Of a stretch of 64,000 bases of DNA, positions 20,290 to 37,524 are shown piece by piece. Each line of letters starts with the position of its first letter. The stretch's first letter is position 1. This stretch comes from Synechococcus sp. (lineage in GTDB: Bacteria > Cyanobacteriota > Cyanobacteriia > PCC-6307 > Cyanobiaceae). The position numbers and the translations under genes are program-made. The DNA lies in NCBI GenBank assembly GCA_047285805.1, contig JBJBCN010000002.1, positions 352,001 to 416,000 on the forward strand, read 5' to 3'. The notes under the pieces were generated by a model, which was not told the DNA's origin, made no database searches, and saw only the letters and a list, made by a program, of their open reading frames with translations.

Positions 20290-20381
20290 ATGCATCGGGA
20301 ATACCGCTGCAACTCCTGAACTTCTCTTGATCTGACGGTCGGGCTGCTTTCCAAAGCACGCTCCGACCTCGGAAATAGGGG

Positions 20382-20405
20382 ACCCCGAGATTGCCGTCTC
20401 GGGGT
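20382..20405. repeat. 9-bp perfect inverted repeat near the left end of the element
   Basis: ACCCCGAGA-ttgccg-TCTCGGGGT. Confidence 0.7.
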
Positions 20406-20524
20406 TGTTCCTCAGGAATAAAGCACGGAAGACCACGCTAAACCAGAGCAACTAACAGCGGTTTTCTACCCGAGGAACGGCGTCAGGGGCAACCCACGTA
20501 GCGCTCCAGTGGAGTGCGCAACAG

Positions 20525-21136
20525 TTGAACCGCACTACCTATCGCTCCCTCGACGCCGAGGTCGGCTGCCTGCAGGCTTCGATCTTCAAAGAGATCCGTC
20601 GTTGCCTACGACTCAACGGCGGCACCGTCGATGCCAACGGCATCAAGTGGGTCTGGCGCAGCGCCGTCTCGCTGGCCGAGCTCTTCGGCGTCAACGAGAA
20701 AACGATCCGCCGTCACCTGAAAGCACTGGTCAGCCTGGGCTGGCTGAAGCGCGACAAGCTCCAACGCAAGTGGGGTTGGCAGGTCTACCACTACTCATTG
20801 GGCGACAACGCTCCTTTGAAGGGAGTGCCGCATCAACCAGAACAGAAGGCCCGCACTGATGCGGACATGGTGTCTGCTTCTATAAACAGCAAGACCACTT
20901 CCCAGAAAATTCACCACCAGCGCCGAACAGCCAGTCGACCTTCGGTCTCCCAACAGCCGAGAACGGAGCAGTCCCGAGTGGTGACGGCCAAGGCTCTGGC
21001 GACAACCGGAAACTGCTGCCCGGTGCCCAGCGACTGGCCTGAGCTCGATCTGTATGCAACGGCCCTGGCCATCGAAAACACCCGCAATCAATTCCCGCTG
21101 CTGCGCCGCAGGGCTGTCGGATTCGGAGCCGCCTGA
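20525..21136 (+). CDS. Winged-helix/HTH protein, replication-initiator-like
   Basis: WVWRSAVSLAELFGVNEKTIRRHLKALVSLGWL HTH followed by a low-complexity C-terminus. Confidence 0.7.
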   Translation: MNRTTYRSLDAEVGCLQASIFKEIRRCLRLNGGTVDANGIKWVWRSAVSLAELFGVNEKTIRRHLKALVSLGWLKRDKLQRKWGWQVYHYSLGDNAPLKGVPHQPEQKARTDADMVSASINSKTTSQKIHHQRRTASRPSVSQQPRTEQSRVVTAKALATTGNCCPVPSDWPELDLYATALAIENTRNQFPLLRRRAVGFGAA

Positions 21137-21573
21137 GAACAGGCATCAACCCCCCCCCCTGCAGCGCAAGGGATCTTGTTTCAACTGACAGGAGTCAACC
21201 AATGACCGCCATCACCGGAAAGGCCCTGCTCTTCACGGAGTTCCTGGAGCTAATACCCCAACGCTCACAACACTCCTGCAACGTCAGATCAGGAGTACCC
21301 ATCGAAGTTGTCACTGCTGTCACCGCACTGCTGGCACTGATGGCATCGACAACAGGGGCCAGTTGCCAACTGCAGAGGGCAGTGCTGTCACTGGCGGCAG
21401 CGTTTTTGTTGATGGCTCAGGCAGCTATTGCGTGAAGAGCCGGTGATGGGTTCAGGTGCTCAATCATTCACAGTGGAGAGTATCAATCCTCCTCGTCTGA
21501 TTCACCGTACGGAAACAGCTTGACCTACTTGCGGCTGAGCTTGATGTTGGAATTAACTCAGCTGTCAACACAG

Positions 21574-22512
21574 TTATTGATGTTCATGGCAGTGTTGATG
21601 GTTGGTCTCAAGTTGCAGGGTGCTCTTTCGAATACCAATCTTTGCCAGAGACTGCCTGGCGATGCCGATCACGCGTTCCCCGTCAACGGCGTCGTTCTCA
21701 AGAACGAGATGGGCTGTTAGGGCCGTTCTGGCGGTGCTGATACCCCAGACATGCAGCTCCTCCACGGCCGCCACGCCGGGTAGCTGTTGGAGCAGTGATT
21801 CGACAGCGCCCAGATCCACCCCCCGCGGAGCCGCATCGAGATTGAGCGCAACCGCCTCCCGCAGCAGATCAATTGCGCTCCAGATCACGGCGGCGCCAAC
21901 GCCGATGGCAGTGATCGCATCGAGCCACAGCCAGCCGGTGAAGCCCACCAGCAGGGCACTCACCAACACCGCAACAGACACCGCTGCATCCGTGAGCAGA
22001 TGCAACACCGCCGCCCGTTGATTCAGATCGTGGTGGTGGTCGTGGCCAAACAACTTGGCTGAGAACAGGTTGATCACGATGCCTGCAGCGGCAGCCCAGG
22101 CCACAGGGGCCGCGATCAAAGGCACAGGGTTAGCAAGCCGTTGGATGGCTTCCACGACCACCACCACACCAGCCGAGAAGATCAGCAGACCGTTGATCAG
22201 TGAGGCCATCTGGGTGCTGCGCCCGAAGCCATAGGTGAAACGGCCCTTTGGCGGCCGCAGGCTGAGCCATTCAGCGCCCCCGCCGAGCACCAGGCCGATC
22301 ACATCGCCGAGGTTGTGGAGGGCATCGCCAACCAAGGCGAGGGATCCAAACCCGAAGCCGATCACCAGCTGCAAGGCGGTGAGACCGCTGTTAAGCGCGA
22401 TGCTCCAGCGGAAGGCTGCACCAGCAGTGCGCTGAACACGATGGTCATGGCTGTGGGCATGATCATGACCTTGCTGATCGTGGCCGTGGTGATGGCGGTG
22501 TCCAGCTCCCAT
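21574..22512 (-). CDS. Cation diffusion facilitator (CzcD/ZitB-like) exporter
   Basis: His-rich N-terminus; SLALVGDALHNLGD, FTYG, HLLTD, LHVW motifs. Confidence 0.93.
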   Translation of the reverse strand: MGAGHRHHHGHDQQGHDHAHSHDHRVQRTAGAAFRWSIALNSGLTALQLVIGFGFGSLALVGDALHNLGDVIGLVLGGGAEWLSLRPPKGRFTYGFGRSTQMASLINGLLIFSAGVVVVVEAIQRLANPVPLIAAPVAWAAAAGIVINLFSAKLFGHDHHHDLNQRAAVLHLLTDAAVSVAVLVSALLVGFTGWLWLDAITAIGVGAAVIWSAIDLLREAVALNLDAAPRGVDLGAVESLLQQLPGVAAVEELHVWGISTARTALTAHLVLENDAVDGERVIGIARQSLAKIGIRKSTLQLETNHQHCHEHQ

Positions 22513-22515
22513 CGC

Positions 22516-22716
22516 TCAACCCTCCGCCTGAGCCGCTAGGTAGGCGGCGATCATCTCGTTCATGCCTTGCTGGGTACGGCCGTGGGGCCGGTATCCCTTG
22601 GCCGCCCAAACGCGATCGAGCTCCATGCGCAGCTCGGGTGTGATCCAACAGGAGAGCAACACCTTGCCCTCCCGGCTGGAGGTGCAACGCTTGGTGGCCA
22701 CTGGGCGTTCGCTCAT
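22516..22716 (-). CDS. Small hypothetical protein
   Basis: 66-aa ATG ORF ending 3 bp before the CDF start, suggesting co-transcription. Confidence 0.5.
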   Translation of the reverse strand: MSERPVATKRCTSSREGKVLLSCWITPELRMELDRVWAAKGYRPHGRTQQGMNEMIAAYLAAQAEG

Positions 22717-22791
22717 GTCACAGTTAATGTATACAAGTGCTCAGTGGGTTTTGCTCTCCCCCTGGCAGTTGGGTTTGGAGTCCCCTGTTGG

Positions 22792-23043
22792 GCCGTGGAC
22801 AAGTTCCAGGGTCAAGAGGCCCCGGTTTCCATCCTGTCGTTGACGGCGAGCAGCGCAGAGGAGGCGCCGCGTGGCCTGGGTTTCCTGCTCTCGGCCAACC
22901 GCCTGAATGTGGCGATGAGCCGGGCGCAATGCCTCTCGATCGTGGTCGGCTCACCGACGCTGGCGGCAGGATCGGCGAACAACGTCGAGGAGGCGGAGCA
23001 ACTCAACAGCCTCTGCCGAATCATTCAGGCCAGTCAGACCTGA
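22792..23043 (+). pseudogene. C-terminal fragment of a superfamily 1 (Upf1/DNA2-like) helicase
   Basis: VDKFQGQE and NRLNVAMSRA (motifs V and VI); no Walker A or other N-terminal motifs. Confidence 0.8.
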
Positions 23044-23058
23044 GCCGATCCCCCTCGA

Positions 23059-23556
23059 CTAGGACTCGGCAGTGAGGACCTGCTGCGTGACCGGGAAAGA
23101 GCGGCAGGTCAGTGGAAAGTTCGTGAGCTGCGCCCGGCGTGCAACAAAGCCAGAGAGCGAATCGAGGTTGATGACCAGGCTGTTGGGGATGACATACAGC
23201 AGCGTCAGACGCTGGTCGTCGCGGATCGGAACCGGTGTGATGTGCAGCTCATCGTCCCTGAAGGTGTAACTGAAACGCCTCTTGTCGTCTGCGTCTCGCT
23301 TAAAGGACGGTGGTAGGGGAGCGAGCTTGTTGTGTTCGCGATCAAAGGCATAGAGGCGCTTGGCCTGCTTGGAGTAGGTCCAGCCCTGGCCTTGGTCGGA
23401 CGCAAATGTCTTGCTGGCCTCGTCGGTGAAGCCGTTCTCATCCTGCAAGCAGACCACTCGTTGGATGTCTTGGTCTGTCGACAAGGGTCCAGGGCTGCCA
23501 GAGCAACCGACAAGCAAGGCAGCTGTCACTGCGAGGAACAAAGGACGTGGCGGCAT
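23059..23556 (-). CDS. Hypothetical lipoprotein
   Basis: Signal peptide with LVGC lipobox; 165 aa. Confidence 0.7.
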   Translation of the reverse strand: MPPRPLFLAVTAALLVGCSGSPGPLSTDQDIQRVVCLQDENGFTDEASKTFASDQGQGWTYSKQAKRLYAFDREHNKLAPLPPSFKRDADDKRRFSYTFRDDELHITPVPIRDDQRLTLLYVIPNSLVINLDSLSGFVARRAQLTNFPLTCRSFPVTQQVLTAES

Positions 23557-23954
23557 GTCAGCGACAGAGAACTGAGCCCAACCACTTGAAGAGAACTGCC
23601 AGCAGGGAGGGGCAGATCAAGAGTGGGACGTCATTCCTCGCACGGCACAAGCTTGAGAGCAGAACCAAGCTCGTCGCTCCCTCTCCTCTTGCGTTAGAAG
23701 CGCCAGCAGGGCCATAACCACTAAGGACACGGTCGAGTGATTCCCCGTGATCCGAGACGGGGGAGTGCCAAGCTCCCCCACCTCAATGCTCCTAGCTGGG
23801 CGCTGAGGGGAAGTGACGTGTTCGCGTTCAACCTCCACTCTCACTGGAAACAGGCCATCAGGTCCGCTCTCAGCGGCCGGGAGGCATCGCCGGCAAGAAG
23901 TTTCGTCAAGGATTAGCAGTAAATACCTTCCGCCGTGGGAAAGTTCACAGTCAT

Positions 23955-24116
23955 ATGCACGATCTACAGACTCCCTTTGGGTTCTTTGGAGAACTGGTCG
24001 TCGGATCCGCCTTGCTCCTCATGGCTCGATCACTCAAAGAAGTCGGATTACTCGCTGCAGCGTTCTTGGTCGGCTTCGTCGCCCTCGAAACCTGTTTGCG
24101 CATGAACGGTCTGTAA
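23955..24116 (+). CDS. Possible small membrane protein (53 aa)
   Basis: Hand translation: MHDLQTPFGFFGELVVGSALLLMARSLKEVGLLAAAFLVGFVALETCLRMNGL. Confidence 0.3.
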   Translation: MHDLQTPFGFFGELVVGSALLLMARSLKEVGLLAAAFLVGFVALETCLRMNGL

Positions 24117-24159
24117 GGGAACCAGCCCCCTCCCTGTAACCGCGATACCACTGCGCTTC

Positions 24160-24369
24160 ATGACTGAATGGCTTAAGAGCCCAAGCGGCAATAGGGTTGC
24201 CCGCTTTTCTGGTACTGGTCTAGGCCGAGCTGAGGTCACAAAAGCGCGTAAAGCGGGTTGGTCTGATCCTCTGGTCGAGCGGCACGATGTGATGAGTCAG
24301 TCGCAAGCCCAACTGCAGTGGCATGGGTTACGCAGTGAGGGATGGACGGTCACTAACCCACAGTGGTGA
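24160..24369 (+). CDS. DUF1651-like small picocyanobacterial protein
   Basis: WL.SP.G...F N-terminus and W..L...GW....PQW C-terminus; family recalled from memory. Confidence 0.55.
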   Translation: MTEWLKSPSGNRVARFSGTGLGRAEVTKARKAGWSDPLVERHDVMSQSQAQLQWHGLRSEGWTVTNPQW

Positions 24370-24944
24370 AACCAGGGCGGGCAGAAAACTGGACTTGAGA
24401 GCTGAGGGAAGGAAGTAACTCAGGCAACTGTCGTGTCGGTCCTGGAAGTAACAGCTCCTGGGTCGGGCTAGGGGAGGAAGCCGCGTAGGGGGAGCTGCAC
24501 TTTCACCATCAGGTGTTTCCCCAAAAAAGCAGCACTGGCGATTACTGCTTTCTCGGGCAGCATTTCACATGGAAAGCGTCCGCGCGCTGTGCGCAAATCT
24601 TCTTAACTAATGCGATCTCGGATCCATGTTGGAGCGGTTAATCAATCCGCTTTTGCTGTAAGCCTAAAAACCACAGGTCGCTCATCTTCTGGATCAGTGC
24701 AAGCGTTAACGACTCTGTTCTTGCAAAAAGCAATAAGTTTGTTTTGCGCCTTGCCTTGGATAGGCCAGTTTTAGGTTGAATGCTTTTGGCGCCTTCACTG
24801 ATACCTATTCTGTTGATTGGTTGCGAGTTGGGCACGCTCTTGATCGAAGCGGCCAGCTGGTCCTCTCCCGGTTACCCGGCGCTTCGTTCCGCCGTTAAGA
24901 GTTCAAGGGATCAGCGGGTGTGAAGACTGTTCTCGTGTAGTTTG

Positions 24945-25070
24945 CGGGCCTGGTTTCAGCAGTGATCAGCTGCTGAAGGAAACGGGGAAAGTCCGGTGGA
25001 AATCCGGCGCTGTCCCGCAGCTGTGAAGCGGCTTCAACAGATGCCGTCAGTCAGAACGCCCGCCAGTTCA
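24945..25070 (+). promoter_or_regulatory. Cobalamin (B12) riboswitch
   Basis: GGGGAAAGTCCGGTGGAAATCCGGCGCTGTCCCGCAGCTGTGA core and AGTCAGAACGCCCGCC B12 box, directly upstream of hupE/ureJ. Confidence 0.92.
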
Positions 25071-25087
25071 ACACGACGAGGATCGAA

Positions 25088-25717
25088 ATGACTAAGGACT
25101 TGCGCGGCCAGCGCTCAGGCCTTGCACTGGCTTTTTGTGGCGCCACAGTCGTCCTGAGCTGCAGTCCAGCTCTGGCGCACCATCCCTTTGGAATGGGCGA
25201 CTCAAGCAATTTGACTGCTCTTCAAGGCCTATTGAGCGGAATCGGTCATCCCCTGCTTGGACCCGACCACCTGCTCTTTTTGATTGCGATCGCTTTTATT
25301 GGCCTTCGCAAGCCAACAGCTTGGGTTCTCCCCCTTCTGGCAACAGGTCTTCTGGGCAGCCTTGCATCCCAGATCGTGCCTCTTCCAGATGCAGTCGCAC
25401 CGTGGGCAGAAGCGATTGTTTCCTTGAGCTTGGCGCTTGAAGGCTTGATTGCCTTGAACAAGCTCCCGGCCAATCTTCTTCTGCCCCTAGTCGGCCTACA
25501 TGGCTTTTTGCTCGGCAGCACGATCGTTGGAGCAGAACCAACCCCGTTGTTGACCTATTTCATTGGTCTTCTGGTTGGCCAGGGTGCTCTGCTTCTTGCT
25601 GTGTGTGCGGGTGCATCACGTTTGCGTGAATGGCTAGGTGCAAACGGCCAAAGGCTTGCTGCGGGAATCTGGATGGGTATTGGTATGGCCTTTGCCTGGG
25701 TGGCCCTCATCGACTGA
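25088..25717 (+). CDS. hupE: HupE/UreJ family Co/Ni transporter
   Basis: ALAHHP, GIGHPLLGPDHLL, GLHGF motifs; located behind a B12 riboswitch. Confidence 0.9.
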   Translation: MTKDLRGQRSGLALAFCGATVVLSCSPALAHHPFGMGDSSNLTALQGLLSGIGHPLLGPDHLLFLIAIAFIGLRKPTAWVLPLLATGLLGSLASQIVPLPDAVAPWAEAIVSLSLALEGLIALNKLPANLLLPLVGLHGFLLGSTIVGAEPTPLLTYFIGLLVGQGALLLAVCAGASRLREWLGANGQRLAAGIWMGIGMAFAWVALID

Positions 25718-25761
25718 ACTCAGTTTGACGTTGATGTTCAGCACGATGAATTAAGTCAGTC

Positions 25762-26559
25762 ATGTGGAATGTGCATGAGCAAGAACTCTTTGCTTTCTTG
25801 CTCACACTTGGTGCTGGTTTATCGACCGGTATCGGCAGTTGGCTCGGGGTGCTCAGTCGCCGTTTCAGCCCAGGCCTGCTGACCACCGCTTTGAGTTTTT
25901 CTGCCGGCGTGATGATCTTTGTCTCCTTCGTGGAGATCTTCCCGAAGGCGCGTCAGTCCCTGACCCCTGCGCTGGGCACTAGCACCGCTTACTTGGTGAC
26001 GGTCCTGGCGTTTTTTGCAGGGATGTTGGCGCTGGCGCTGATCGATCGGCTGCTGCCGTCCCATGAGCTGGCGATCCTGCCGTTGCGGGAAGGGTCTGAT
26101 TCCTCGGCCCTGATGCGCACGGGCTTGTTCTCGGCCCTCGCCATCGCGATCCATAACTTCCCCGAGGGGCTCGCCACCTTTGTGGCGGCTCTGTCTGAGC
26201 CCCGGCTTGGCATTGGCATCGCCATTGCCATCGCCATCCACAACATTCCTGAGGGGCTGGCGGTGTCAGCCCCCGTCTATTACGCGACCGGCAGCCGCAC
26301 TCAGGCCTTCTGGATTTCCTTTGCCTCCGGATTGGCGGAACCGCTCGGAGCGCTCATCGGTTACGTCTTTCTCCGCTCGTTCCTCAACGACGTGGTCCTC
26401 GGTCTGGTCTTCGCCAGCGTCGCCGGAATCATGATCTACATCTGCTTTGACGAGCTGCTGCCGGCGGCGCAGCGCACTGGTGCGAAGCACCATCTGATGA
26501 TGGTTGGCGTCACTGCCGGCATGTTGGTGATGAGCATCAGCTTGGTGATGCTCGCCTGA
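25762..26559 (+). CDS. zupT: ZIP family divalent metal transporter
   Basis: AGLSTGIG, HNFPEG, HNIPEG, SGLAEPLGA, DELLP. Confidence 0.92.
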   Translation: MWNVHEQELFAFLLTLGAGLSTGIGSWLGVLSRRFSPGLLTTALSFSAGVMIFVSFVEIFPKARQSLTPALGTSTAYLVTVLAFFAGMLALALIDRLLPSHELAILPLREGSDSSALMRTGLFSALAIAIHNFPEGLATFVAALSEPRLGIGIAIAIAIHNIPEGLAVSAPVYYATGSRTQAFWISFASGLAEPLGALIGYVFLRSFLNDVVLGLVFASVAGIMIYICFDELLPAAQRTGAKHHLMMVGVTAGMLVMSISLVMLA

Positions 26560-26584
26560 AGGCGGACCACTAATTTTCTCCTGT

Positions 26585-26605
26585 CGAAAAGAATCAATCT
26601 TTTCG
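26585..26605. promoter_or_regulatory. Palindrome upstream of the porin gene (candidate operator or terminator)
   Basis: CGAAAAGA-atcaa-TCTTTTCG in an AT-rich intergenic stretch. Confidence 0.4.
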
Positions 26606-26658
26606 TTTAAAGCCTCTATTAATCGCAGTTAATTACTTTTCCCCACTCCCTCTTAAAA

Positions 26659-28215
26659 ATGAGAAGCTTTCAAAACTTTCTCCTCGCGCCTGCAGCTCTG
26701 GGCCTTCTGGCTCCTGTTGCTGCAAACGCCGCTGACGTCAACATCGCCGGCCTGAGCCAGTACGGCACCGAAGAGCAGGTGACTTCGATCACCCAGTTCT
26801 CCGACGTGCAGCCCACCGACTGGGCTTATCAGGCACTGAGCAACCTGATCGAGCGCTACGGCTGCGTCGCTGGTTACCCCAACGGCACCTACCGCGGCAA
26901 CCGTGCGATGACCCGCTATGAAGCGGCCGCACTGCTGAACGCTTGCCTCGACCGGATCACTGAAGTGACCGACGAGCTCAAGCGCCTGATGAAGGAATTC
27001 GAGCGTGAGCTGGCTGTGCTCCGCGGCCGCGTGGACGGCCTCGAGGCTCGCGTCGGCGAACTGGAAGCCTCTCAGTTCTCCACCACCACCAAGCTGCGTG
27101 GTCTGGCCACCTTCGTTGTGGGTGCCAACAACTTCAGCGGCAATGCTCGGCAACTTGTTGATGAGAACAAGGGAAAATTTGCTGCAGCGACATTTAACTA
27201 CGATTTGCAGTTGAATATTGACACCAGTTTTACTGGTAGAGATTTACTGCGTAGCACACTTCGCGGCGGAAACTTTGACGGGACCTGGAATTCATTTGGC
27301 GGAGCCGGCCCAAGCAGCTTGTCACAACTAGAGGTTGCTTTCCAGGAGGAAGGTGGAGCAGATGTCGTAGGAATTGACAGGCTTTTCTATCAGTTCCCTA
27401 TGAATGACTTTATTTTCTCTGTGGGACCTCGGGTTGCGCAAGAGGACATGCTTCCCATTTGGCCATCGATTTATCCCGCAAGTGCAGTCCTGGACCTTCT
27501 GACGCTAGGAGGCGCGCCTGGGGCATACAACAAAAATCTAGGTTCTGGTGCTGGTATCTCTTGGCAATCCAATGGATATGCAGTCGGAGCTAACTATGTT
27601 GCTGCGAATGGTCGCAACGGAGATCCTTCTCAAGGAGGAATTGCCACCGCAGGATCTGGTGGAACAGGGTCTGTTCAGCTGGGTTATGCATCTGGAGAGT
27701 GGGGCATAGCCGCCCTTTACTCGCGACTTCAGAATGCAAATGACCTGTTCGTATATGGAACAGACTTCACCCTCGAAAGTTATTCCAAACCTGGCACCAC
27801 AAATGCTTTCGGTGTAAGTTCTTACTGGCAGCCACAGACGACAACTTGGATTCCGTCGATCAGTGGAGGCTGGGGCATCAACTCAACCAGTTACGCAAGC
27901 TCTGTTGTCAGTCGTGGGCTGACAGCCATCAGCCAGTCTTGGAGCGTTGGTCTTCAGTGGAGTGAGGTCCTGCGTCAGGGGAACTCTTTAGGAATGGCTG
28001 TTGGCCAGGCTCCTTTTAGTACCGAACTCGTGGGAGGGGAATCTCTCACTGATGGAAACTTTGCTTGGGAGTGGTGGTACAACTATCAGGTTTCAGACAA
28101 CATCTCCATTACCCCGGCACTCTTTTACCTGAGCCGGCCATTAGGTGATGCAACTCCAAGCAATACAAGCTTCAATCAGCTTGGCGGCCTAGTCAAGACG
28201 AGCTTCAGGTTCTGA
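26659..28215 (+). CDS. Cyanobacterial outer-membrane porin (SLH + OprB-type barrel, Som family)
   Basis: FSDVQPTDWAYQAL SLH domain, coiled coil, QFSTTTKL, terminal F. Confidence 0.93.
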   Translation: MRSFQNFLLAPAALGLLAPVAANAADVNIAGLSQYGTEEQVTSITQFSDVQPTDWAYQALSNLIERYGCVAGYPNGTYRGNRAMTRYEAAALLNACLDRITEVTDELKRLMKEFERELAVLRGRVDGLEARVGELEASQFSTTTKLRGLATFVVGANNFSGNARQLVDENKGKFAAATFNYDLQLNIDTSFTGRDLLRSTLRGGNFDGTWNSFGGAGPSSLSQLEVAFQEEGGADVVGIDRLFYQFPMNDFIFSVGPRVAQEDMLPIWPSIYPASAVLDLLTLGGAPGAYNKNLGSGAGISWQSNGYAVGANYVAANGRNGDPSQGGIATAGSGGTGSVQLGYASGEWGIAALYSRLQNANDLFVYGTDFTLESYSKPGTTNAFGVSSYWQPQTTTWIPSISGGWGINSTSYASSVVSRGLTAISQSWSVGLQWSEVLRQGNSLGMAVGQAPFSTELVGGESLTDGNFAWEWWYNYQVSDNISITPALFYLSRPLGDATPSNTSFNQLGGLVKTSFRF

Positions 28216-28217
28216 TC

Positions 28218-28610
28218 TCATTGATCAGAAGCATGGTGTTCACTGCAGGGCATCCATAAAGAGCCCATCGCGTGAGCACCATTGCAGCCCAATTCTGCGG
28301 CCTTCTCCAGTGCAATCTTTTTGCTGGGGTAGGCCATTAATTGCTTTTGTTCAGAGAAATTTGCATGGTGTTCATGAGTGTTGCTGGGTGCAAGTGACCA
28401 AAGGCCCATCGCATTGATGCCCGTGACCGCAATACCCATCCCCACCACGCAAGCGTTGAGGATTCCCATGCCAACCACGCCGAGGCTGATAGCGCCCATT
28501 GGCACCACGCCAATACTCACCACCCCCATTGGCACTACGCCGATCGAAACGATCCCTAGTGGAGCTATCCCAATAGCGAGTAGCTTTGGAGGCTCATTGC
28601 AACTGGACAT
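28218..28610 (-). CDS. Membrane protein with 10-aa Gly-rich repeats and a C-terminal DUF3721-like domain
   Basis: PxGxxSxGVV repeats, then GCNGAHAMGSLWMPCSEH. Confidence 0.7.
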   Translation of the reverse strand: MSSCNEPPKLLAIGIAPLGIVSIGVVPMGVVSIGVVPMGAISLGVVGMGILNACVVGMGIAVTGINAMGLWSLAPSNTHEHHANFSEQKQLMAYPSKKIALEKAAELGCNGAHAMGSLWMPCSEHHASDQ

Positions 28611-28619
28611 GGCTTCTTT

Positions 28620-28886
28620 TTAGTGATTCGTTGCGGCTGAGTGGGTTCCCATTTCGTGGGATTTGCACGGCATCCATAGCTCCCCCATGCGATGAGCGCC
28701 TGTGCAGTTGAAATGCTTTTTGGCTGCTTCCTCTGCTTCGGTTTTTGTTGCATACATTGCTGGCACTCCCAAAGTATTGGCATTGGCGCTCTGTAAAAGG
28801 AGAAAAGACGACGCAGCTACTATCAATGCGGCAGCAGTGCTCTCAACTTTCCCGCAAGGGCTATTGAAATAAGTTATAGTCAGCAC
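28620..28886 (-). CDS. DUF3721-like exported Cys/His protein
   Basis: MYATKTEAEEAA...CTGAHRMGELWMPCKSH; start uncertain. Confidence 0.7.
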   Translation of the reverse strand: MLTITYFNSPCGKVESTAAALIVAASSFLLLQSANANTLGVPAMYATKTEAEEAAKKHFNCTGAHRMGELWMPCKSHEMGTHSAATNH

Positions 28887-29240
28887 GATTAGTCAAAGCA
28901 AATCTAAAGGCATTTTGTACTTGCAGGCAGATGGTGTTCATGTAAAGACACTCGCGCAGCTTTCACGCGTCCCCTCCAAATTAGCAAGGATCAAAAATTC
29001 CCTAGTCTTTTCGAGGGAGGCGCTCCGCAGGTCAGACGGAGCGGCGAGACTAACTCCACCGCTGCACACACAGTGCCTAAAACAATCTCGAAGACTAACG
29101 CCAAAAAGCTGCACAGTTTCGATGCGGCTTATTCGCGATCATGAAAGCTGGAGGCGACAAAAGAGGGGCAAGAGAAGACTTATTCCCTGCAGCCCATTGC
29201 AAGCGGAGAATGATCAGTCAAACTATACATAGACAACCTT

Positions 29241-29627
29241 GTGGCCATGATAGTTGAACAACGACGCTACAAGCGTCCGCTCAAAGATCTCTCCCCAATC
29301 GAATACCAGCTCCGCAAGACCAATCGAGTCCTGGAGAAACTCCGCCGTCACGAACGCGATCTACTCGCTCTGCCTCACTCCCGATCCAAACCCGAACGCC
29401 TACGCCGTTGCCGTCAGCGCATTGCTGATCAACGTCGTATGTATCGAGCCTTCCAGATCGCTGCTTACCTCCTCGGCCTCAAGGTTTGGCCTAAACCCAC
29501 CCAACGTGAACTCAACCCCTGGGCTGAAACAAACAAACCAAACACAATTCCGTCTCCTCCCTCTTGGTTGACTGATCAATTCGATGACTTCAACATTAAT
29601 GCAGATCTAGATGACATCGCAGCATGA
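29241..29627 (+). CDS. Hypothetical basic helical protein
   Basis: 128-aa Arg-rich ORF; start uncertain. Confidence 0.55.
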   Translation: MAMIVEQRRYKRPLKDLSPIEYQLRKTNRVLEKLRRHERDLLALPHSRSKPERLRRCRQRIADQRRMYRAFQIAAYLLGLKVWPKPTQRELNPWAETNKPNTIPSPPSWLTDQFDDFNINADLDDIAA

Positions 29628-29791
29628 CAACATCTCTAACCAGTCATACTCAAACACTCATCCGTAATGGCGAATCCACCCGTTGGGTCAACGTCATTGC
29701 CTCAACTAACGATCACCTCACCATCTCCATCCCAGGTGCTGGTATCCAACGCATCCCAGCCTCTCTAGCCGTCCCTCAATCCACCTCCTAA
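29624..29791 (+). CDS. Small hypothetical protein (55 aa)
   Basis: ATGA overlap with the previous stop; MTTSLTSHTQTLIRNGESTRWVNVIAST...; followed by a terminator. Confidence 0.5.
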   Translation: MTTSLTSHTQTLIRNGESTRWVNVIASTNDHLTISIPGAGIQRIPASLAVPQSTS

Positions 29792-29817
29792 CTTCAATCC
29801 GTAGAAGCAGGTCCCAC

Positions 29818-29850
29818 GCCCTCACGCTCGCCATCGCGTGGGGGCTTTTT
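29818..29850 (+). terminator. Intrinsic terminator
   Basis: GCCCTCACGC-tcgccatc-GCGTGGGGGC stem (one G-U pair) followed by TTTTT. Confidence 0.75.
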
Positions 29851-30477
29851 ATTGCTCTCTCCCTCTCTGCTTCCTTGATGCACTCCCGATGCATTAGTGA
29901 TGCATTGGTGTGGGGGATTTTGCTGCTTTTCTATGAGCGGCTTCACGTACATACATACGGGCGCAGTCGCCCCCCGTGGGGGTCGGCGGCAAGGCCTGGG
30001 GGTGGGGATACGGATGAAGGTCACGTCGTCCGGCTGGCCAGGGCGCCGTTGGCCTGCGTCGTCCACGCCATAAAAGGGTTGGGGCGCGTAGAAAAAAAGC
30101 GTTCCGACCTGCCGCTGAAATTCAACGGTGTGCCCTTCAACCAAAGACGAGACGCCCGCGCGTTTCCTTTAAGGGCCAAGGCTGGCCAACCGGTTCCGAT
30201 CGGTGTTGATGGCGGCAATGACTGAGAGAGCACTGCCGATTGCACCGATGGCGTCACTGGTGGCAGTGGACTGATGGCACTGACAGCAGGGCCACCACAA
30301 CCCAACGGTTTCGGCGGGGCGCCACAACCTGGGGCCTGGCCACCGCCACAACAGGGATTGAAGGCCAGCGAAACGGTCCTTCGCCTTGATCCAGCGAAAG
30401 GGTGTGCTGTATGGTTTCGGTGGGCCAGCGCAGCGCCAACTGCCTGACCCGTGATCAATCCAGATGGAGCTGGACCG

Positions 30478-31068
30478 ATGACTAAGAGTTTGAGCAGTGG
30501 CCAGTGCATTGGCTATGCACGGGTCTCAACAAAGAGCCAGAGCGTTGAAGCCCAGGTGGCTGAGTTGAAGGCTGCAGGGGCCACGAAGGTCTTTGCAGAG
30601 CGCATCAGCACAAGGACAGCTGACAAGGACAGAACACAGCTGCAGGCCTGTCTGGCGTCACTACACAAGGGAGATGAGCTGGTGATCACCAAGCTCGACC
30701 GCCTTGGCAGGACTCAACGGGAGGTCATCAACCGACTGTGTGAGCTGCAGGAAGCAGGGATCAACGTCAGAACACTCGACAACCTGATCAACACCGCAGC
30801 ACTGGGGAAGATGGCTCCGCTGGTGGTTGGCCTGCTCACTGGTCTTGCTGAGGTTGAGCGTGAGCTGATCCGCGAGCGGACCCTGGCCTCTGTTGAGCAC
30901 CGCAGGGCAACTGGCGGGAAGCTCGGGGGAAGGCCTGCCAGCTTCACTCCAGAGCAGGCGCAGCAGGTCCATCGGATGCTGTTGGAGGGCATGTCCCTGG
31001 CCGCTGTAGCCCGAGGGACAGGGCTCTCGGAATCAACCTGCAGACGAATCAGGAAGCAAGCAGTTTGA
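30478..31068 (+). CDS. Small serine recombinase (resolvase/invertase) with C-terminal HTH
   Basis: GYARVST, GDELVITKLDRLGR, AEVERELIRERT, GGRP and an HTH. Confidence 0.93.
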   Translation: MTKSLSSGQCIGYARVSTKSQSVEAQVAELKAAGATKVFAERISTRTADKDRTQLQACLASLHKGDELVITKLDRLGRTQREVINRLCELQEAGINVRTLDNLINTAALGKMAPLVVGLLTGLAEVERELIRERTLASVEHRRATGGKLGGRPASFTPEQAQQVHRMLLEGMSLAAVARGTGLSESTCRRIRKQAV

Positions 31069-31084
31069 GGCCCTCCGAGGAGGT

Positions 31085-31120
31085 CAATCAACGTCAGATC
31101 AACCATCAATGCGTTGATTG
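31085..31120. repeat. 9-bp perfect inverted repeat downstream of the resolvase
   Basis: CAATCAACG (31085-31093) and CGTTGATTG (31112-31120), flanked by GAGG/CCTC. Confidence 0.7.
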
Positions 31121-31324
31121 CCTCGCAACAGGAGGGATCCATGCTCACAACGGCGAGAAAGGCGAGGCTTCAGCCCTTCCTCAACGCTCTTCAGCTCAGG
31201 ATTTCGCTCACAAACACATGTACGAGTAACGACCCAGCTCTGGAGGGGCTTTATTGCTGCATTTGATGCTCCGGGGAGCGCTACGGGGAAGGGCGCAACA
31301 GAGAAGCCTCCAGGAAGCTGTTTA

Positions 31325-31399
31325 AGAGGCTCCTAGAGGCTGAATCGAGGCGATAGAGGCGAAAGGAGCTCTAGAGGCCTTGTAGAGGCTTTTAGAGGC
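31325..31399 (+). repeat. Helically phased (TA)GAGGC direct repeats
   Basis: GAGGC starts at 31326, 31336, 31347, 31356, 31374, 31385 and 31395. Confidence 0.8.
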
Positions 31400-31412
31400 C
31401 GATTAGGAGTCT

Positions 31413-31643
31413 TTAGCGATCAACAGGGAGTTGTTCGATCTGATCGAAGCGTTCTTGGAGGCCAGGGTTGTTCTGAGGGTCGGTGACGAGGCCGTGTACG
31501 CGGCGGAGCGTCCATTCAGCGTTGAAGAGTTGCCAGAGGCGCTGTTCTGGTGTTTCGCGGTGGATGCCTGTGTAGGGGCGGTCTTCCGGGGGGAAGTGGC
31601 TATAGCCAGGGCGTTCAATACGCGTTGCAGGCTGATGAGACAT
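31413..31643 (-). CDS. Small hypothetical protein
   Basis: 76-aa ATG ORF co-oriented with the upstream Rep-like gene. Confidence 0.5.
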   Translation of the reverse strand: MSHQPATRIERPGYSHFPPEDRPYTGIHRETPEQRLWQLFNAEWTLRRVHGLVTDPQNNPGLQERFDQIEQLPVDR

Positions 31644-31759
31644 ATGCGCTATGCAGCTTGATCAACGATAGCGAGGCAGGGAGCAAGTGACACCTGATCA
31701 ACATCAACACAACAAGACTCATTTGTCTTGAGGTCAACAACAGTGCAGCGTTCATTCTC

Positions 31760-32788
31760 TCAGTCGTATGAAGTCACAACACAGTGACGATCATTCAACA
31801 AAACCTTGTCACCAGGCATGAGGCTGGAAGGCTTTGGAGTCAACAAGTGATTGTTATCAACAACAGCAGGACGATCATGGATACCCCTGATCTTGATATT
31901 CGCTGCTGATCTTGAGCTGGGGGCTTTGGAGCGCTCAACACCGCCCCCGAGGAAGTACCGAACGAATGGTTGCTCGGGGTCGAGGAGGTTCTGGGGCAGG
32001 GCGTAGCGATTGCCCGAGCCGTGGCAGAGAACAACGCACTGATCAACAGGGCGCTGCCCTTCAACCAAAAAGCGCTGATCCCTGAGCATGAGCTCCTCGT
32101 GATTGCCGAAGGCTGATTTCAACAAAGCCCTGAGCTCTTTAGAGCAGGGCTCAACACCAGCGAGGCTTTCAACCCGATTGAGGAAGGGGAAGGCCTCGAG
32201 AACGGGATCAACCTCAACCGATTGGGGTGTGTTGACCTCTGATTCCGGCTGTTGGGCTGCTTCCCTCTTAAGAGAACTTTTTTCTGGAGTCTCTAAGACT
32301 CTTAGTGGTGACCCCTCATTGGGGGTCAGGGGGTGACCCTTCTGGGGGGTCAGGTGGGGTGACCCCTCATTAGGGGTCAGGGGGTGACCCTTCTGAGGGG
32401 TCAGGTCTGCTGATTTCCGTGCTTTGGCCCACGGCCAGCGAACGTCTTTCGCACGTGCTTGGTTGCGGTGCTCTTGCAACAGCAGCTCAAAGCGATCGGA
32501 CTCAACAGCGGGGCCAAGCTGCAGGGTGCTGGGCTTGCCTGGGATCTTGATTTCGGTGAGCAGGCCAGCCTTCACCAGGGCGGCCTTGATCTCGCCAGGG
32601 CGTCGGCGGTTGATGTCGAAGGCGACGGCCTCGGAGGCCACGCTGATGGATCGTGAACCGTTGGTTGATGTATCAACCATGCCGAGTAGGTGCATGGCGA
32701 TGTTGAGTTGATCGCGTGACTTCGCGTTGATCAACCAAGCAACAGCGAACTGCTGGTCAACGGGGTTGAAGAAGAAGCTGCGGGACAT
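31760..32788 (-). CDS. Putative replication initiator with internal iteron-like repeats
   Basis: HTH-like N-terminus (...IKAALVKAGLL...) and a central duplicated TPQKGHPLTPNEGSP encoded by palindromic DNA repeats. Confidence 0.6.
   Translation of the reverse strand: MSRSFFFNPVDQQFAVAWLINAKSRDQLNIAMHLLGMVDTSTNGSRSISVASEAVAFDINRRRPGEIKAALVKAGLLTEIKIPGKPSTLQLGPAVESDRFELLLQEHRNQARAKDVRWPWAKARKSADLTPQKGHPLTPNEGSPHLTPQKGHPLTPNEGSPLRVLETPEKSSLKREAAQQPESEVNTPQSVEVDPVLEAFPFLNRVESLAGVEPCSKELRALLKSAFGNHEELMLRDQRFLVEGQRPVDQCVVLCHGSGNRYALPQNLLDPEQPFVRYFLGGGVERSKAPSSRSAANIKIRGIHDRPAVVDNNHLLTPKPSSLMPGDKVLLNDRHCVVTSYD
32309..32403. repeat. Four palindromic TGACCC-N7/8-GGGTCA sites (51-bp tandem duplication), candidate iterons
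   Basis: Sites at 32309-32328, 32334-32352, 32360-32379 and 32385-32403, next to an AT-richer tract at about 32266-32305. Confidence 0.85.
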
Positions 32789-33131
32789 CGGTTGGCATGA
32801 GCGTTGTGGGGATATGGCGTTACGATTCCAAGGTGCTCTTTTGCTATTCCCGACTGAGCTCTAAAGGCGTCGTCTTGGGTGGGCGGCACCTTTTTTAATG
32901 GGAGCTTGGAGTGACCCTGGCGACAAGGAATGAGCAGGGCAACTAACCGATAAGTAGAGCTAATAAAGCCCGCTGTTTCAGTACTTTGGGCTTGCCGATT
33001 GTTGTTGATTGATTCCATCCAATAGCTGCACTGCAGCGTGAGGATCAACGCCGCCATGCATTGCGGGTATCAACAATGCGTTGTCGGTTGATGCTGCCCC
33101 TGGTGAGGCTTGGGGAGGGTGTCAGCTGGGC

Positions 33132-34739
33132 TTATCCGCCTCTCCTGAGCCCTCTTAGGCGCCTTTCCTCGGGAGGCGTGGCGATGTCCTTTGCGTTGGC
33201 ATCCACGGCCTCCCACCACTCAAACGTCCTGCTCAGCGCCACGTTGTCGCTGATGCCTTCCTCGAGGCCGAGCTGAATCCGCTGGTCTTCGGGGCTGAGG
33301 CTGTCATCGTTGAGCTCAAAGCGTTCCTTTTTCGTCGCTGGATCGAAGCTCCACTTGAACCCGAAGCGACCGCTGGCGACTTCAATCACCCAACGGTTTT
33401 CAACGCGAGCCCCGAGTTCGGCGTCGTCGATGGCTTCGAGCAGTTGTTGGTCCGTCAGCTCCCATGGCTGCGCGAGCAACGGGGTGAGTCGTTCGATCAG
33501 CTGAGCGGTGGTGACCTGCGAGCCATGCATCCTGCTGACTTCCTGCTCGATCGCCTTTTCCTTTTCCGCGATCAGCGGGCCGGTGCCATCAATGTTGAGA
33601 GCCCTCAGTGCGGTCAAATCCGATCTCAGCTTGAGCAGCTCCTTTGATTCCACGGCCTCGCGGCTGGCCATAGCGGCCTTGAGCGGAGCCAACCGCTGGA
33701 CCAACGCCGGGCCCATCCATTCAATGGCGCGGCAGATCGAGGCTCTGGCGCTGGCATCGAGGATCGAGTTGGCGCCGTACCGCTGAGAGCAGTCGGCGGT
33801 GATGCAGCGGAGCCGACCATGGTGGCGCCCCATACGGATGCCGCACTCATGGCAACGGAAGTGCCCTGTTCGCCAGCTGCGTTGGGTTGATTGCCTGTGA
33901 GCGGAAGCGCCTCGAGCAGTGGAGGCTTCGAGCGCCCGTTCAACCTCAGTCCAGGTTGCTCTGGGGATCAATCCCTGGTGGCGGTCCCATTCGATGGAGT
34001 CATAGACGCCAGGCCTTGGGCCTTTGCGCTTGCGGGTGCCATCGGGCAGCGTCACCCAGGTGCCAGCGCAGCGGCCAATGCCGCCAGCGATGGCTGGGTT
34101 CTTCAACCAATTTCGGAAACTCAGCCTTGGCTTGTGGATCCCGTGGGTTCGGTTGAGCCAGAGCACGGTTTCTTGGATGCTCCGGCTTCTGAGGAAGTGC
34201 TCGATTGCTCCGCGAGAGACCTCCTCGAGTTCGGGGTCAACCACCAGGCCCAGGCCATCGGGCGCTCGCAGGAAGCCCCATGGAGGTTTGCCACCGTGGC
34301 CTCCTTTGCTCTGGCGGTGTGCTCTGCCGTGGGCGACGCGCTCGGCCAAGCGTTCAACTTCACCGGCATTGACCGCCGAGAGCAGTCGGGCTGTCATGCG
34401 CCCGGCAACGGTTGAAACGTCGAGGCCGTCGTCCAGCAGTCGGAGGTTGGCGGTGCCTTCCCGAGCAAAGAAGTCGAGCAGCTTTTCGTTGAACTTGGGG
34501 CTTCGGGTGATCCGATCCAGCCGGGTGGCGATCAGGGTGTCTTCGGGGCCCAGCAGAGCCAGGGCTTTCTTGAGTTCGGGCCGGTTGTCCTGCGTCCCGC
34601 TCTGCACATCAGAAAAGATTTCAGTGCAGCCAGCGGCGACAAGGCGAGCTTTCTGCTGCTCGAACGCCGAGGAATCGCGGGCCTGCTCCAGGCTCGAGAC
34701 TCTGGCGTAGCCGATCAGCGACATTCCCCCTTGCAGCAT
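33132..34739 (-). CDS. Large serine recombinase (integrase)
   Basis: GYARVSS catalytic motif, TRLDRITR, KPPWG recombinase domain, CHEC...C...C zinc ribbon and coiled coil; 535 aa. Confidence 0.93.
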   Translation of the reverse strand: MLQGGMSLIGYARVSSLEQARDSSAFEQQKARLVAAGCTEIFSDVQSGTQDNRPELKKALALLGPEDTLIATRLDRITRSPKFNEKLLDFFAREGTANLRLLDDGLDVSTVAGRMTARLLSAVNAGEVERLAERVAHGRAHRQSKGGHGGKPPWGFLRAPDGLGLVVDPELEEVSRGAIEHFLRSRSIQETVLWLNRTHGIHKPRLSFRNWLKNPAIAGGIGRCAGTWVTLPDGTRKRKGPRPGVYDSIEWDRHQGLIPRATWTEVERALEASTARGASAHRQSTQRSWRTGHFRCHECGIRMGRHHGRLRCITADCSQRYGANSILDASARASICRAIEWMGPALVQRLAPLKAAMASREAVESKELLKLRSDLTALRALNIDGTGPLIAEKEKAIEQEVSRMHGSQVTTAQLIERLTPLLAQPWELTDQQLLEAIDDAELGARVENRWVIEVASGRFGFKWSFDPATKKERFELNDDSLSPEDQRIQLGLEEGISDNVALSRTFEWWEAVDANAKDIATPPEERRLRGLRRGG

Positions 34740-34797
34740 GGGTAATCATCATGTTACTCTCCCGCTGCGTAGCCGGCCGTCCTCGACGCTTCCCAGG

Positions 34798-35044
34798 GGT
34801 GCTCGTAGTTGCCCGAGCGGATCGCCAGGCCGATACCGCAGCTCTCGTCATCGATGAGCCTGTCCACGCAGTCGCCCCACCAACTGAGCGCGGGGGACCC
34901 CAGCGGCGCGGCAATGTCCAGGCCACGGTGGGTGCGTGAGCCTCTGGCCCGCCAGCCGAAATGGCTGGTGTAGCCGCTGAACTGCGGGACCTGGAACTGG
35001 GCCAGGCGCCACTGGTTGGCCTGAACCGGAGAGGCAACCAGCAC
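34798..35044 (-). pseudogene. M23 family metallopeptidase, 5' half
   Basis: YTSHFGWR...THRGLDIAAPLGSP...CGIGLAIRSGNYEH (HxxxD motif); M23 similarity stops abruptly after EH. Confidence 0.88.
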
Positions 35045-35058
35045 GGCGGTGGCCAGAC

Positions 35059-36234
35059 TTAGAGGAGCCCGATGGCATGAAGCGGCCCGCGTCCGCTTAG
35101 GAGTTCAAGGAGGAAAGCAGAGAAGCCGAGCATGGCCAAGCGCCCGTTCCAGACCTCAGAGCTGTTGTTCCAACCCCAGGCCCACTTGTCCTGGGGATAG
35201 AGCTTGACCTTGGTGGGTAGAGCGGCGGCTTGATCGAGGTTGACCTCGGGTCCTTCTAGGGCGTGTTGGACGAGGTTGGCCAGACCATCAATAAAGGAGG
35301 GGGTGGTGTCGAGTGCGGGTACGCGGCGGAAGTTGGTGATGCCGGCTTCCGTTGCGATCTCGCGGTACTCGATATCGATTTCCTCGAGGGTTTCGATGTG
35401 CTCGCTGACAAAGCTGATGGGGACGACGACGAGGTCCTTGACGCCGGATTCACCGAGCTCATTGAGTGCTTCATCGGTGTAGGGCTTGAGCCACTCGACC
35501 GGGCCGACACGGCTTTGGTAGGCCAGGGTGAATGGATTGGCGTGGCCGAGATCGGTGGCCAGCTTGTCCATGATCAGCTGGGAGCAGGTTTCGATTTCCT
35601 TTTGATAGGGGTCACCGGCTTCCTCGACGTAGCTCTTGGGGACGCCGTGGGCGGAGAAGAAGACGTGGGCGTCAGCGGGGTTGGGGCAGGCCCGTATCTC
35701 TTTGCCGATCAGTTCGGCCATGGCGCCGATGTAACCGGGGTCGTTGTAGTAGCTGCGGATGCAGCGGATGGGGAGATTGGAGAAGGAGGGATCGCCCTGG
35801 CGTAGGCGTTGCAGTTCGCGGAAGCTGGAGCCGCTGGTGCTGATGGAGAAGTGGGGATAGAGAGGAAGGACGACCACTTCATCAATGCCGTCGGCCTTGA
35901 TGTCGGCGACGGCGGATTCCGTGAAGGGGTGCCAGTAGCGCATGGCCACGTAGCTGGTGGCCTCGATGCCGCGCTGGCGCAGGGTGCTCTGCAGTTCCCG
36001 TGCCTGCTGCTCGGTGATGCGCCGCAACGGGGAGCCACCGCCGATGGAACGATAGGCGGCCTGTGATTTGCCGGACCGCAGGCTGCTGATGAGCCAGGCG
36101 AGGGGTTTTTGGAGTGCTGGATTAGGGAGCCGGATGATCTCCGGGTCCGCGAAGAGGTTGTAAAGGAAGGGGCCGACGTCCTGGATGCGTTCAGGGCCGC
36201 CGAGGTTCAGCAACACAACGCCGACCTTGGCCAT
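35059..36234 (-). CDS. hemH: Ferrochelatase with C-terminal CAB-like helix
   Basis: [37 protein letters not shown]. Confidence 0.97.
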
Positions 36235-36363
36235 GCACCGCTTCATCGCAAAACAACACTGGCGAGCGTAACGCTGCCGGCCTGGGCCTGGTCGCTCTGG
36301 CTCAATCTCGATAGGGTCGGCCGGACCTCTTTATGTGACGAGATCAGCCTCGAACAGCTCGAT

Positions 36364-37524
36364 TTGGCCCTTCGCGAACACAACGCGTTGCTGGCAGGCA
36401 GCGGTGTCTCGTTGCGGCTGGAACGGCGCGGGTCCCGGCTTGGCTTGAGGGGCTCCCTGCCCTGCCGCAGTGGTGGGCCGTCCCAGCGGGTTCAACGGAT
36501 TAGCCTCGGTCTGGAGGCCAATATGGCGGGCCTGGAGCAGGCCCGCGCCCAGCTGAAGCAAGTGCTACATCAGCTCCAGCAGCAACGCTTCCGTTGGCAG
36601 GACTGGGGGGCAAGCCCCCAACCAAGCGAGGCCCCTTCGGACCGACTGACCCCTGCGCTCAACACGCCGATTGGGCCCCGGCTAGAGCGCTTTGAGCAGG
36701 CATTCTTCAACGACCCGCGCCGCCGCCGCAACCCATCGGGTGCTCGGACCACCTGGAGCAGCGCCTATCAGCCGTATCTCAGGCGCCTCAAGCGCCTGGC
36801 CGAGGACCAGGCCCTTGATTGGGGACTCCCCCTGCTTGAGGTTGTTCTCGAGAGTTATCGCGTGGCTTCGCGGGGGCGACAGCAATGCGGCACCACCTTG
36901 GCGGCCCTCGCCCGCTCTGAGGGGTTGGTGTTGCCCTCCGACTGGAGTGAGCGGGCCGCTGGCTATGGCCTCCATGCCGCTCAGTTCCGTCAGCTCCCCA
37001 GTGATCAGCAGATCCTGGACTGGCTGGAGCGCATTCCCAATCCCGCTTGGCGTTTGGCCTATGGGTTGATGGCCACCTACGGCCTACGCAACCACGAGGT
37101 TTTCTTCACCGATCTCTCCGCCCTGGCCCCTGGGGGCGATCGGGTGATCCGCGTCTTGCCGACGAGCAAAACAGGCGAACACCAGGTCTGGCCCTTCCAG
37201 CCGCAGTGGGTGGAGCGCTTCGGCCTGGAGCAACTCGGGGCCCAGCGTCAGTTGCTCCCGACGGTCTGCACGGACCTGAGGCGCACCACACTGCAGCAGG
37301 TTGGACGGCGGGTGGCGGAGCAGTTTCGGCGCTACGACCTGCCGTTAACCCCCTATGACCTGCGCCATGCTTGGGCGGTCCGCACCATCCACATCGGCCT
37401 GCCCGACACCGTGGCGGCGCGAATGATGGGCCACTCGGTGGCGATCCATACCCGTACCTATCACCACTGGATCACCCGCCGGGACCAACAGCAAGCGGTC
37501 GACAACGCCCTGGCCCGCCATTAG
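36364..37524 (+). CDS. Tyrosine recombinase family protein
   Basis: YGLRNHE, KTG, YDLRHAWA, MGHS..IH..TY; start uncertain. Confidence 0.85.
   Translation: MALREHNALLAGSGVSLRLERRGSRLGLRGSLPCRSGGPSQRVQRISLGLEANMAGLEQARAQLKQVLHQLQQQRFRWQDWGASPQPSEAPSDRLTPALNTPIGPRLERFEQAFFNDPRRRRNPSGARTTWSSAYQPYLRRLKRLAEDQALDWGLPLLEVVLESYRVASRGRQQCGTTLAALARSEGLVLPSDWSERAAGYGLHAAQFRQLPSDQQILDWLERIPNPAWRLAYGLMATYGLRNHEVFFTDLSALAPGGDRVIRVLPTSKTGEHQVWPFQPQWVERFGLEQLGAQRQLLPTVCTDLRRTTLQQVGRRVAEQFRRYDLPLTPYDLRHAWAVRTIHIGLPDTVAARMMGHSVAIHTRTYHHWITRRDQQQAVDNALARH

Follow-up and report, generated by a model that had tools for sequence, protein, structure and literature searches.

The window (the whole 64-kb stretch of DNA that was analysed) contains an uninterrupted 535-codon reading frame at 33132-34739 on the minus strand, which encodes a large serine recombinase (LSR). 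A sequence-only reading had likewise described an intact 535-aa recombinase. The gene lies at the right end of a low-GC stretch, an element inserted into an M23 peptidase gene between hemH (ferrochelatase; 35059-36246, minus strand), whose 3' end overlaps the M23 start, and ilvB (18196-20079, minus strand), which is the downstream flank and adjoins the M23 gene in empty loci. Such an interruption had been proposed from the sequence, and it was borne out by relatives that carry hemH - M23 - ilvB uninterrupted. Alignment with empty alleles located the 5' remnant of the M23 gene at 34762-35078 (minus strand). The 3' remnant, with the HxH motif, lies at 20100-20282 (minus strand; Peptidase_M23 in Pfam, E 8.7e-8) and is 89-91% identical to the empty alleles. 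A tyrosine-recombinase-family gene at 36109-37524, divergent from hemH, is kept in relatives (92% in G023), indicating that it is a host gene outside the element. A second hemH was present inside a phycobiliprotein gene cluster (G000:C3:116229-117407; 100% identity over 1,179 nt). Because sequencing run X2 branches at 35055, this hemH duplication looks real and recent. Judging by hemH and the phycobiliprotein genes, the host is probably a picocyanobacterium.

The left end of the element is a structured non-coding region with several hairpins (20285-20530, plus strand), placed between the LSR and the adjacent HTH gene in the predicted circle. The z-scores of its fold were -4.6 (RNA, plus strand), -2.3 (RNA, minus strand) and -4.4 (DNA). 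No Rfam match was obtained for 20285-20530, and the region is possibly an origin, a set of terminators or a small RNA. The gene at 20525-21136 (plus strand) encodes an HTH protein like phage replication initiators (HTH_36; PHROG replication initiation, E 1.7e-10). In four cases the longest contigs carrying homologs of the HTH protein and of the LSR were equal in size (13,166, 26,245, 8,861 and 4,609 nt), which suggests, without showing, that the two sets of homologs lie on the same contigs. The HTH protein is apparently a constant partner of the LSR clade and is a candidate regulator or directionality factor. Its profile matched 1 of 400 family genomes, in which no LSR was found on that contig.

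A replication-initiator-like ORF at 31760-32788 (minus strand; Atlas score of 0.96 to HTH_36/Rep-O clusters) contains four direct repeats of ~25 bp at 32307-32408 and is ended by a TGA; at this codon 5 of 6 cluster members have Trp, and their frames remain open beyond it. The element also encodes a small serine resolvase (30451-31068, plus strand; Resolvase and HTH_7 in Pfam) and contains a fragment of an AAA_12 helicase; neither a primase nor an intact helicase was found in it, and phage genes were likewise absent. The cargo consisted of a CDF cation efflux transporter (21574-22512, minus strand), a cobalamin riboswitch (24934-25081, plus strand; RF00174, 59.9 bits vs 31.5), genes for hupE/ureJ, a ZupT (ZIP) transporter and an SLH/OprB porin (25088-28215, plus strand), and two DUF3721 genes (28218-28886, minus strand; Pfam).

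Sequence related to the cobalamin riboswitch was also observed at G000:C2:621467, ahead of a second hupE. The ZIP gene (25792-26553) has a second copy at C2:493044 with 91% identity, and the 5' part of the porin gene (26678-27101) is 89-96% identical to four other porins; these second copies suggest exchange between cargo and chromosome. A repeat of ~90 bp at 23704-23792, possibly a small mobile or regulatory element, has four more copies on C2 (77-88%). One contig of metagenome run X4 joins 21897 to 30207 and represents a variant without most of the cargo, and both X4 and another run (X8) carry other DNA beyond 21230. These variants indicate that the cargo is exchangeable.

Boundaries of the element and predicted att sites

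The M23 alleles of two close relatives (G023 and G033) served as empty-site references. On the right flank both aligned as far as 34762, on the left flank from 20284 onwards, and the two flank alignments overlapped by precisely 2 nt, GG. The integrated element thus spans 20285-34763, a length of 14,479 bp in which the 2-bp core is counted once, and its GC content is 57.2% as against 63.1% in the flanks. The right core (34762-34763, minus strand), where homology to the empty alleles stops, forms the first two bases of an M23 Gly codon, and the left core (20283-20284, minus strand) is where host homology begins; the GG is retained in 46 of 47 intact M23 alleles. In accord with these positions, metagenome contigs from three of three independent studies (X4, X6 and X8) all stopped matching at 34763. 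Furthermore, two relatives of the LSR that are 98.9% identical (P0010 and P0026) diverge upstream 17 codons before the G of GYAR, which is the register of the GG. A 4-bp repeat, GGAG, was ruled out as the core because it leaves one extra nucleotide compared with the empty alleles. On the left, the matches of the metagenome contigs overran the core by 10 nt, to 20273, an overrun that an ungapped simulation reproduced with 0 of 46 M23 alleles and not with the circle either. Neither an empty-site joint nor a circle joint appeared among those listed for four sequencing runs, including the possible source run, in contigs of a kind that drop rare variants. We regard the boundaries given here as very probably correct. 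The exact cut had been called ambiguous in the sequence-only reading, and the empty alleles fix it at GG.

Following the site logic of serine integrases, as outlined in the accessible part of PMC11722253, the predicted attP would consist of arms P' (34741-34761) and P (20285-20305) and the predicted attB of host arms B (34764-34784), which matches the empty alleles, and B' (20262-20282), defined by the empty-allele alignment; all four are on the minus strand. As an inverted pair, the P arms agree in 11 of 21 positions and both have GGTA at -21, and as good a match was reached by 1.1% of random genome pairs and 0.9% of shuffles (p 0.009-0.011). The B arms were symmetrical at 5 of 21 positions only. 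Among 252 alternatives with the same core, the GG cut shares the top arm symmetry (13/25). The symmetry of the predicted sites is modest. Two pattern scans with the att arms, aimed at loci of close homologs, gave 0 matches each. The locus still provides a candidate new integrase/att pair, as had been proposed, with the pair itself corrected to the GG-centred sites.

The earlier proposal had set the ends of the element at a degenerate repeat (9/12), with a crossover near an in-frame ACC, TTCCC/GGGAA arms at the circle junction and a rebuilt M23 frame upon excision. Both 12-mers exist (20282-20293 and 34791-34802), the left one does include the true left core, and the ACC join is in frame. As element ends, however, the 12-mers did not hold. 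Matches to the right 12-mer with three or fewer mismatches numbered 110 in the 64-kb window, compared with 126.5 ± 11 in shuffles, and the repeat is thus at chance level. The right 12-mer (minus strand) is host M23 sequence across a 13-bp deletion and sits 28-40 nt outside the element; the proposed cut site is about 35 bases off the true junction. The 31 nt at 34764-34794, which that model assigns to the circle, coincide with the empty alleles of G023 and G033 at 28/31 and 29/31 positions, respectively; the true element ends reach just 17-18/31 anywhere in these two loci. The GGGAA arm (34790-34794) is host coding sequence, a crossover at ACC drops 16 codons that are present in 4 of the 4 closest empty alleles, and the independent contigs break off at 34763 instead of close to 34798. 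With this evidence against it, the repeat-based model can hardly be maintained; a deletion in the host remnant caused a plausible but wrong att call.

The recombinase among large serine recombinases

The LSR comprises a catalytic domain with the nucleophile S15 inside GYARVSS, a recombinase domain, a Cys4 zinc ribbon, a coiled coil and a clade-specific C-terminal region at about residues 425-515. Of the three domains named earlier, the resolvase-type catalytic domain was recovered directly (PF00239, E 1.2e-25 in Pfam), whereas the other two emerged chiefly through clade members and mostly below the cut-off. PF07508 reached E 0.015 in the LSR itself, below the Pfam cut-off. At E<=1, this domain was recognised in 12 of 13 clade members and the zinc ribbon PF13408 in 6 of 13. 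Residues C296, C299, C312 and C317 were invariant in 13/13 members. The structure model (mean pLDDT 76.9) matched solved serine integrases in Foldseek with E values from 4e-14 (best) to 3e-10. Its residues 132-460 superposed on 4kis with a Z of 14.1 and an rmsd of 6.1 over 280 aligned residues, and helices 366-381 and 387-423 form the coiled coil. In domain order, fold, 2-bp core and near-symmetric attP, the system resembles the SPbeta, Bxb1, phiC31 and LI integrases as presented in the part of PMC11722253 available to us. It is unlike phage serine integrases in that the element has no phage genes and the protein is 12-17% identical to the solved integrases.

Twelve homologs with 54-59% identity were obtained among 20 matches from 7,999 candidates. 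Because they begin at the position of M6, the true start of the LSR is likely M6 (34724), which would give a protein of 530 aa. Residues 425-515 mark the clade: when their profile was run on a set of 216 proteins, it was strong on clade members alone and weak on P0034. Folded alone, the region had a pLDDT of 46, and its Atlas matches were without names.

The closest named family was XisF (NF041201; 224.1 bits, E 3.5e-66, residues 9-422), to which the LSR is about 29% identical, and its score falls short of the curated cut-off of 375 bits. Of the phylogeny once suggested for this enzyme against XisF, SpoIVCA and tycheposon integrases, the XisF part was run, with rows that we picked from profile matches and among which SpoIVCA and tycheposon LSRs did not figure. 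In a 32-row IQ-TREE tree, the LSR clade (100/100) grouped with other picocyanobacterial LSRs (92/90), and the 11 XisF rows formed a group of their own (93/92) apart from it. A 70-row FastTree tree and a 30-row mixture tree (quick search) agreed in placing the clade outside XisF, and a tree forcing the two together was rejected (p-AU 0.027). By these three trees the LSR is placed in a sister lineage of XisF rather than among its members. Pfam gave no match to xisH or xisI in the 20 longer ORFs of the element that were scanned. XisF-family interruption elements supply the closest named family and share their layout with this element. As described in the accessible part of PMC4874684, xis-type genes as a rule sit at the start of the element in the same orientation, and such elements are found in non-heterocystous cyanobacteria too. 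Unlike XisF elements, the present one has an LSR with an extra C-terminal region, and its excision cannot restore the interrupted gene.

Decay of the host gene and expression of the recombinase

The 5' remnant of the M23 gene carries an 8-bp deletion near its start (35058/35059), a premature stop in the shifted frame, and the 13-bp deletion (34794-34799), which takes out a conserved YCHL stretch. A contig of the possible source run, which is not independent, crosses these lesions gap-free, indicating that they are not assembly slips. Lineage-specific changes in M23 numbered 16 synonymous and 18 non-synonymous over 154 codons, compared with 52 and 8 over 452 codons in ilvB (p 7.6e-5); on the relatives' own M23 branches the numbers were 17 to 6, and relaxed selection against these gave p 0.058. 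No other copy of the M23 ortholog was found in the 2.37-Mb, 3-contig assembly. The M23 gene is thus a pseudogene, and the expectation that excision would rebuild M23 was not upheld. Given the lesions, excision cannot restore the protein. Since it would leave a dead M23 gene behind, it would serve the mobility of the cargo, not the restoration of the gene.

The LSR shares the frame of the original M23 reading, with two stop codons ahead of it, and its start is 22 or 37 nt away from the core. This distance leaves no room for a promoter of the LSR, so read-through from the host is likely in the integrated state, and hemH is its likely source because its 3' end overlaps the M23 start. Read-through from hemH/M23 is accordingly a plausible prediction from the gene arrangement. 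Promoter scans returned 0 promoter-like sites on either side, and six RNA runs contained just 8-19% of the words. In the circle, the LSR and the HTH gene would be divergent, in orientations that agree with those given by the sequence-only reading, and the geometry by itself makes a state-dependent promoter switch plausible. The TnpX integrase of Tn4451 is reportedly controlled by a state-dependent promoter, to judge from the title of a reference. According to the accessible part of PMC13023037, the integrases at the ends of ICEKp1, ICEclc and ICEEc1 are driven by a promoter of the host in the integrated state and by one at the element end in the circle. Compared with these, the present locus offers the geometry only, and the host transcript would be that of hemH/M23, not a tRNA.

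From the chemistry of serine integrases, the LSR would be expected to cut on either side of GG and to recombine attP (20285-20305 with 34741-34761) and attB (34764-34784 with 20262-20282). For excision, a directionality factor would be required. While integrated, the LSR would be transcribed by read-through from hemH/M23 only. In the circle, about 280 nt would separate the divergent LSR and HTH genes, and the structured 240-nt left end would supply the LSR promoter.

Nature of the element and choice of target

The layout fits the definition of tycheposons, mobile elements of Prochlorococcus of which 27 of 937 use an LSR (bioRxiv 10.1101/2020.12.28.424599), in a comparison of gene arrangement and gene types. 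Genes for adaptive cargo or for phage interference also belong to that definition. As in the portion of that preprint available to us, the element falls in the range of 10-20 kb, has an inward-facing site-specific integrase at one end (here 22-37 nt inside the right junction), and carries a small replication module, a small serine recombinase and metal/nutrient cargo (here CDF, riboswitch-hupE, ZupT and porin). The replication module of tycheposons adjoins the integrase or the other end, according to the same portion; in the present element, the genes concerned are initiator-like by similarity and one ORF is truncated. Unlike the tycheposons described there, it uses a protein-coding target, not a tRNA, and neither a primase nor an intact helicase was found. 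Integration into coding genes is shared with the LSRs surveyed in PMC10083194, and marine satellites with serine recombinases related to those of tycheposons are described in PMC9618062, each in the part accessible to us.

We consider it probable (about 85%) that a tycheposon-like metal-cargo element was inserted by its own LSR, through exchange at GG, into what is today an M23 pseudogene. This reading stands on features visible in the sequence itself: where the element begins and ends, the overlap of 2 bp, an intact recombinase, the cargo and a decayed host gene. LSRs, 2-bp cores and end-located integrases with borrowed promoters are known already, so the surprise of the mechanism is limited. 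The interest lies in a base-exact attP/attB prediction for an uncharacterised picocyanobacterial LSR clade, in a group with few integration tools, and in a tycheposon-like metal-cargo element that uses a coding gene instead of a tRNA. No earlier description of this element was found in the literature searched; the supplements of the tycheposon preprint may include the clade. 'Synechococcus', 'Cyanobium' and 'M23' were absent from the accessible contents of 8 supplement files of PMC10083194 (long cells in part; 2 of 6 cyanobacterial rows).

XisF being the closest named family (E 3.5e-66) and the layout fitting interruption elements, a programmed switch like those of XisF and SpoIVCA was considered, in which the cell would regain a needed M23 peptidase through excision under certain circumstances. 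The two frameshifting deletions, the stop and the relaxed selection in the remnant speak against it, as does the gap-free recurrence of the lesions in the contig of the possible source run. In addition, four other family genomes (G279, G151, G148 and G291) have independently lost the M23 gene linked to hemH, by frameshift or deletion, without an LSR in the loci fetched. An LSR was equally absent from the loci checked in five genomes with weak-scoring M23, whose orthologs are broken or missing. A programmed switch is thus very improbable. The decay of the host gene bears on the present state of the copy as well. Its long duration, the nonsense codon in the Rep-like gene, the AAA_12 helicase fragment and the dispersed ~90-bp repeat inside the element, and the absence of a joint from the possible source run are what would be seen if the copy were grounded, that is, if the LSR gene were intact but the element no longer excised or replicated and its cargo had become a fixed island. 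The LSR, the HTH gene and both P arms are intact, however, and a metagenome copy whose flanks apparently differ shares 99.97% identity with the right module. Grounding is a possibility to which we give a minor share, and we lean towards present activity of this copy without much assurance.

Homologs of the LSR were expected to sit in M23 genes too, if the M23 site were characteristic of them, and unrelated loci such as tRNAs were the alternative. Relatives were found in the neighbourhoods of comM and tRNA-Phe and not in M23 genes, so an M23 specificity of the clade is refuted, but not the boundaries of this element. In P0026 (54% identical), the first 12 residues are those of antisense comM Walker A (12/12 in 2 of 13 comM genes), and residues 2-12 match it in three more comM genes. 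The match breaks at the junction, indicating that the P0026 element sits in comM, and the register of this comM junction is that of the GG here. The LSR of G180 comes after a comM 5' fragment, comM pieces were present in 4 of 28 XisF-model loci, and tRNA-Phe adjoins two distant LSRs. According to the accessible part of PMC10083194, LSRs most often target the Mg-chelatase (comM) gene, with 12.4% of site-specific integrases. Loci of close homologs were not recovered from genome contigs (3 distant loci), from the 15 of 64 parts of the metagenome contigs that were scanned (1 distant locus) or from viral contigs in two scans (2 and 0 distant loci), and whole-genome searches gave distant LSRs only, in 2 of the 44 genomes of the genus and 5 of the 400 of the family. 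For the peptide upstream of P0024, the matches were unconvincing (E 0.002-0.008, in 3 of 151 genomes). The upstream peptide of P0025 differs from that of the comM-inserted P0026, and the 4.6-kb contig with P0025 may therefore carry a natural attP junction.

These observations raise the alternative that M23 is a secondary or look-alike site and that the recombinase, with relaxed specificity, normally targets another gene such as comM. This alternative is compatible with insertion at GG and refines it. Among the near-identical copies, X6 shows a single difference in 2,999 nt, and X4 runs on for 414 unlike bases past 34763. Because 45 of 46 intact M23 alleles would carry the alignment past 34763, where the contigs of the three studies stop, another target for the same enzyme is hinted at. 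The stop points are those of alignment ends, which counts against this alternative. No second M23-inserted element was found among 401 family genomes, as far as checked, in line with an incidental site. The comM Walker A as flank of the metagenome contigs is unsupported: in only 1 of 13 comM genes does a GG site reach 8/10 to B'. Moreover, DUF4368, which marks multi-targeting LSRs in the accessible part of PMC10083194, was absent from 13/13 clade members. We put the look-alike site at somewhat under an even chance. A bolder version, in which the clade freely retargets, 99.97% identical copies insert at more than one unrelated gene without DUF4368, and the HTH protein acts as a directionality factor of a new type whose linkage to the LSR promoter exists in the circle alone, seems doubtful. 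If near-identical copies do use several targets, the clade would form a natural series for change of LSR specificity.

The genome's own comM is a pseudogene (G000:C2:1366298-1367423) with an internal deletion of ~410 nt from Walker A. The gene is intact in G023, G036 and G156.
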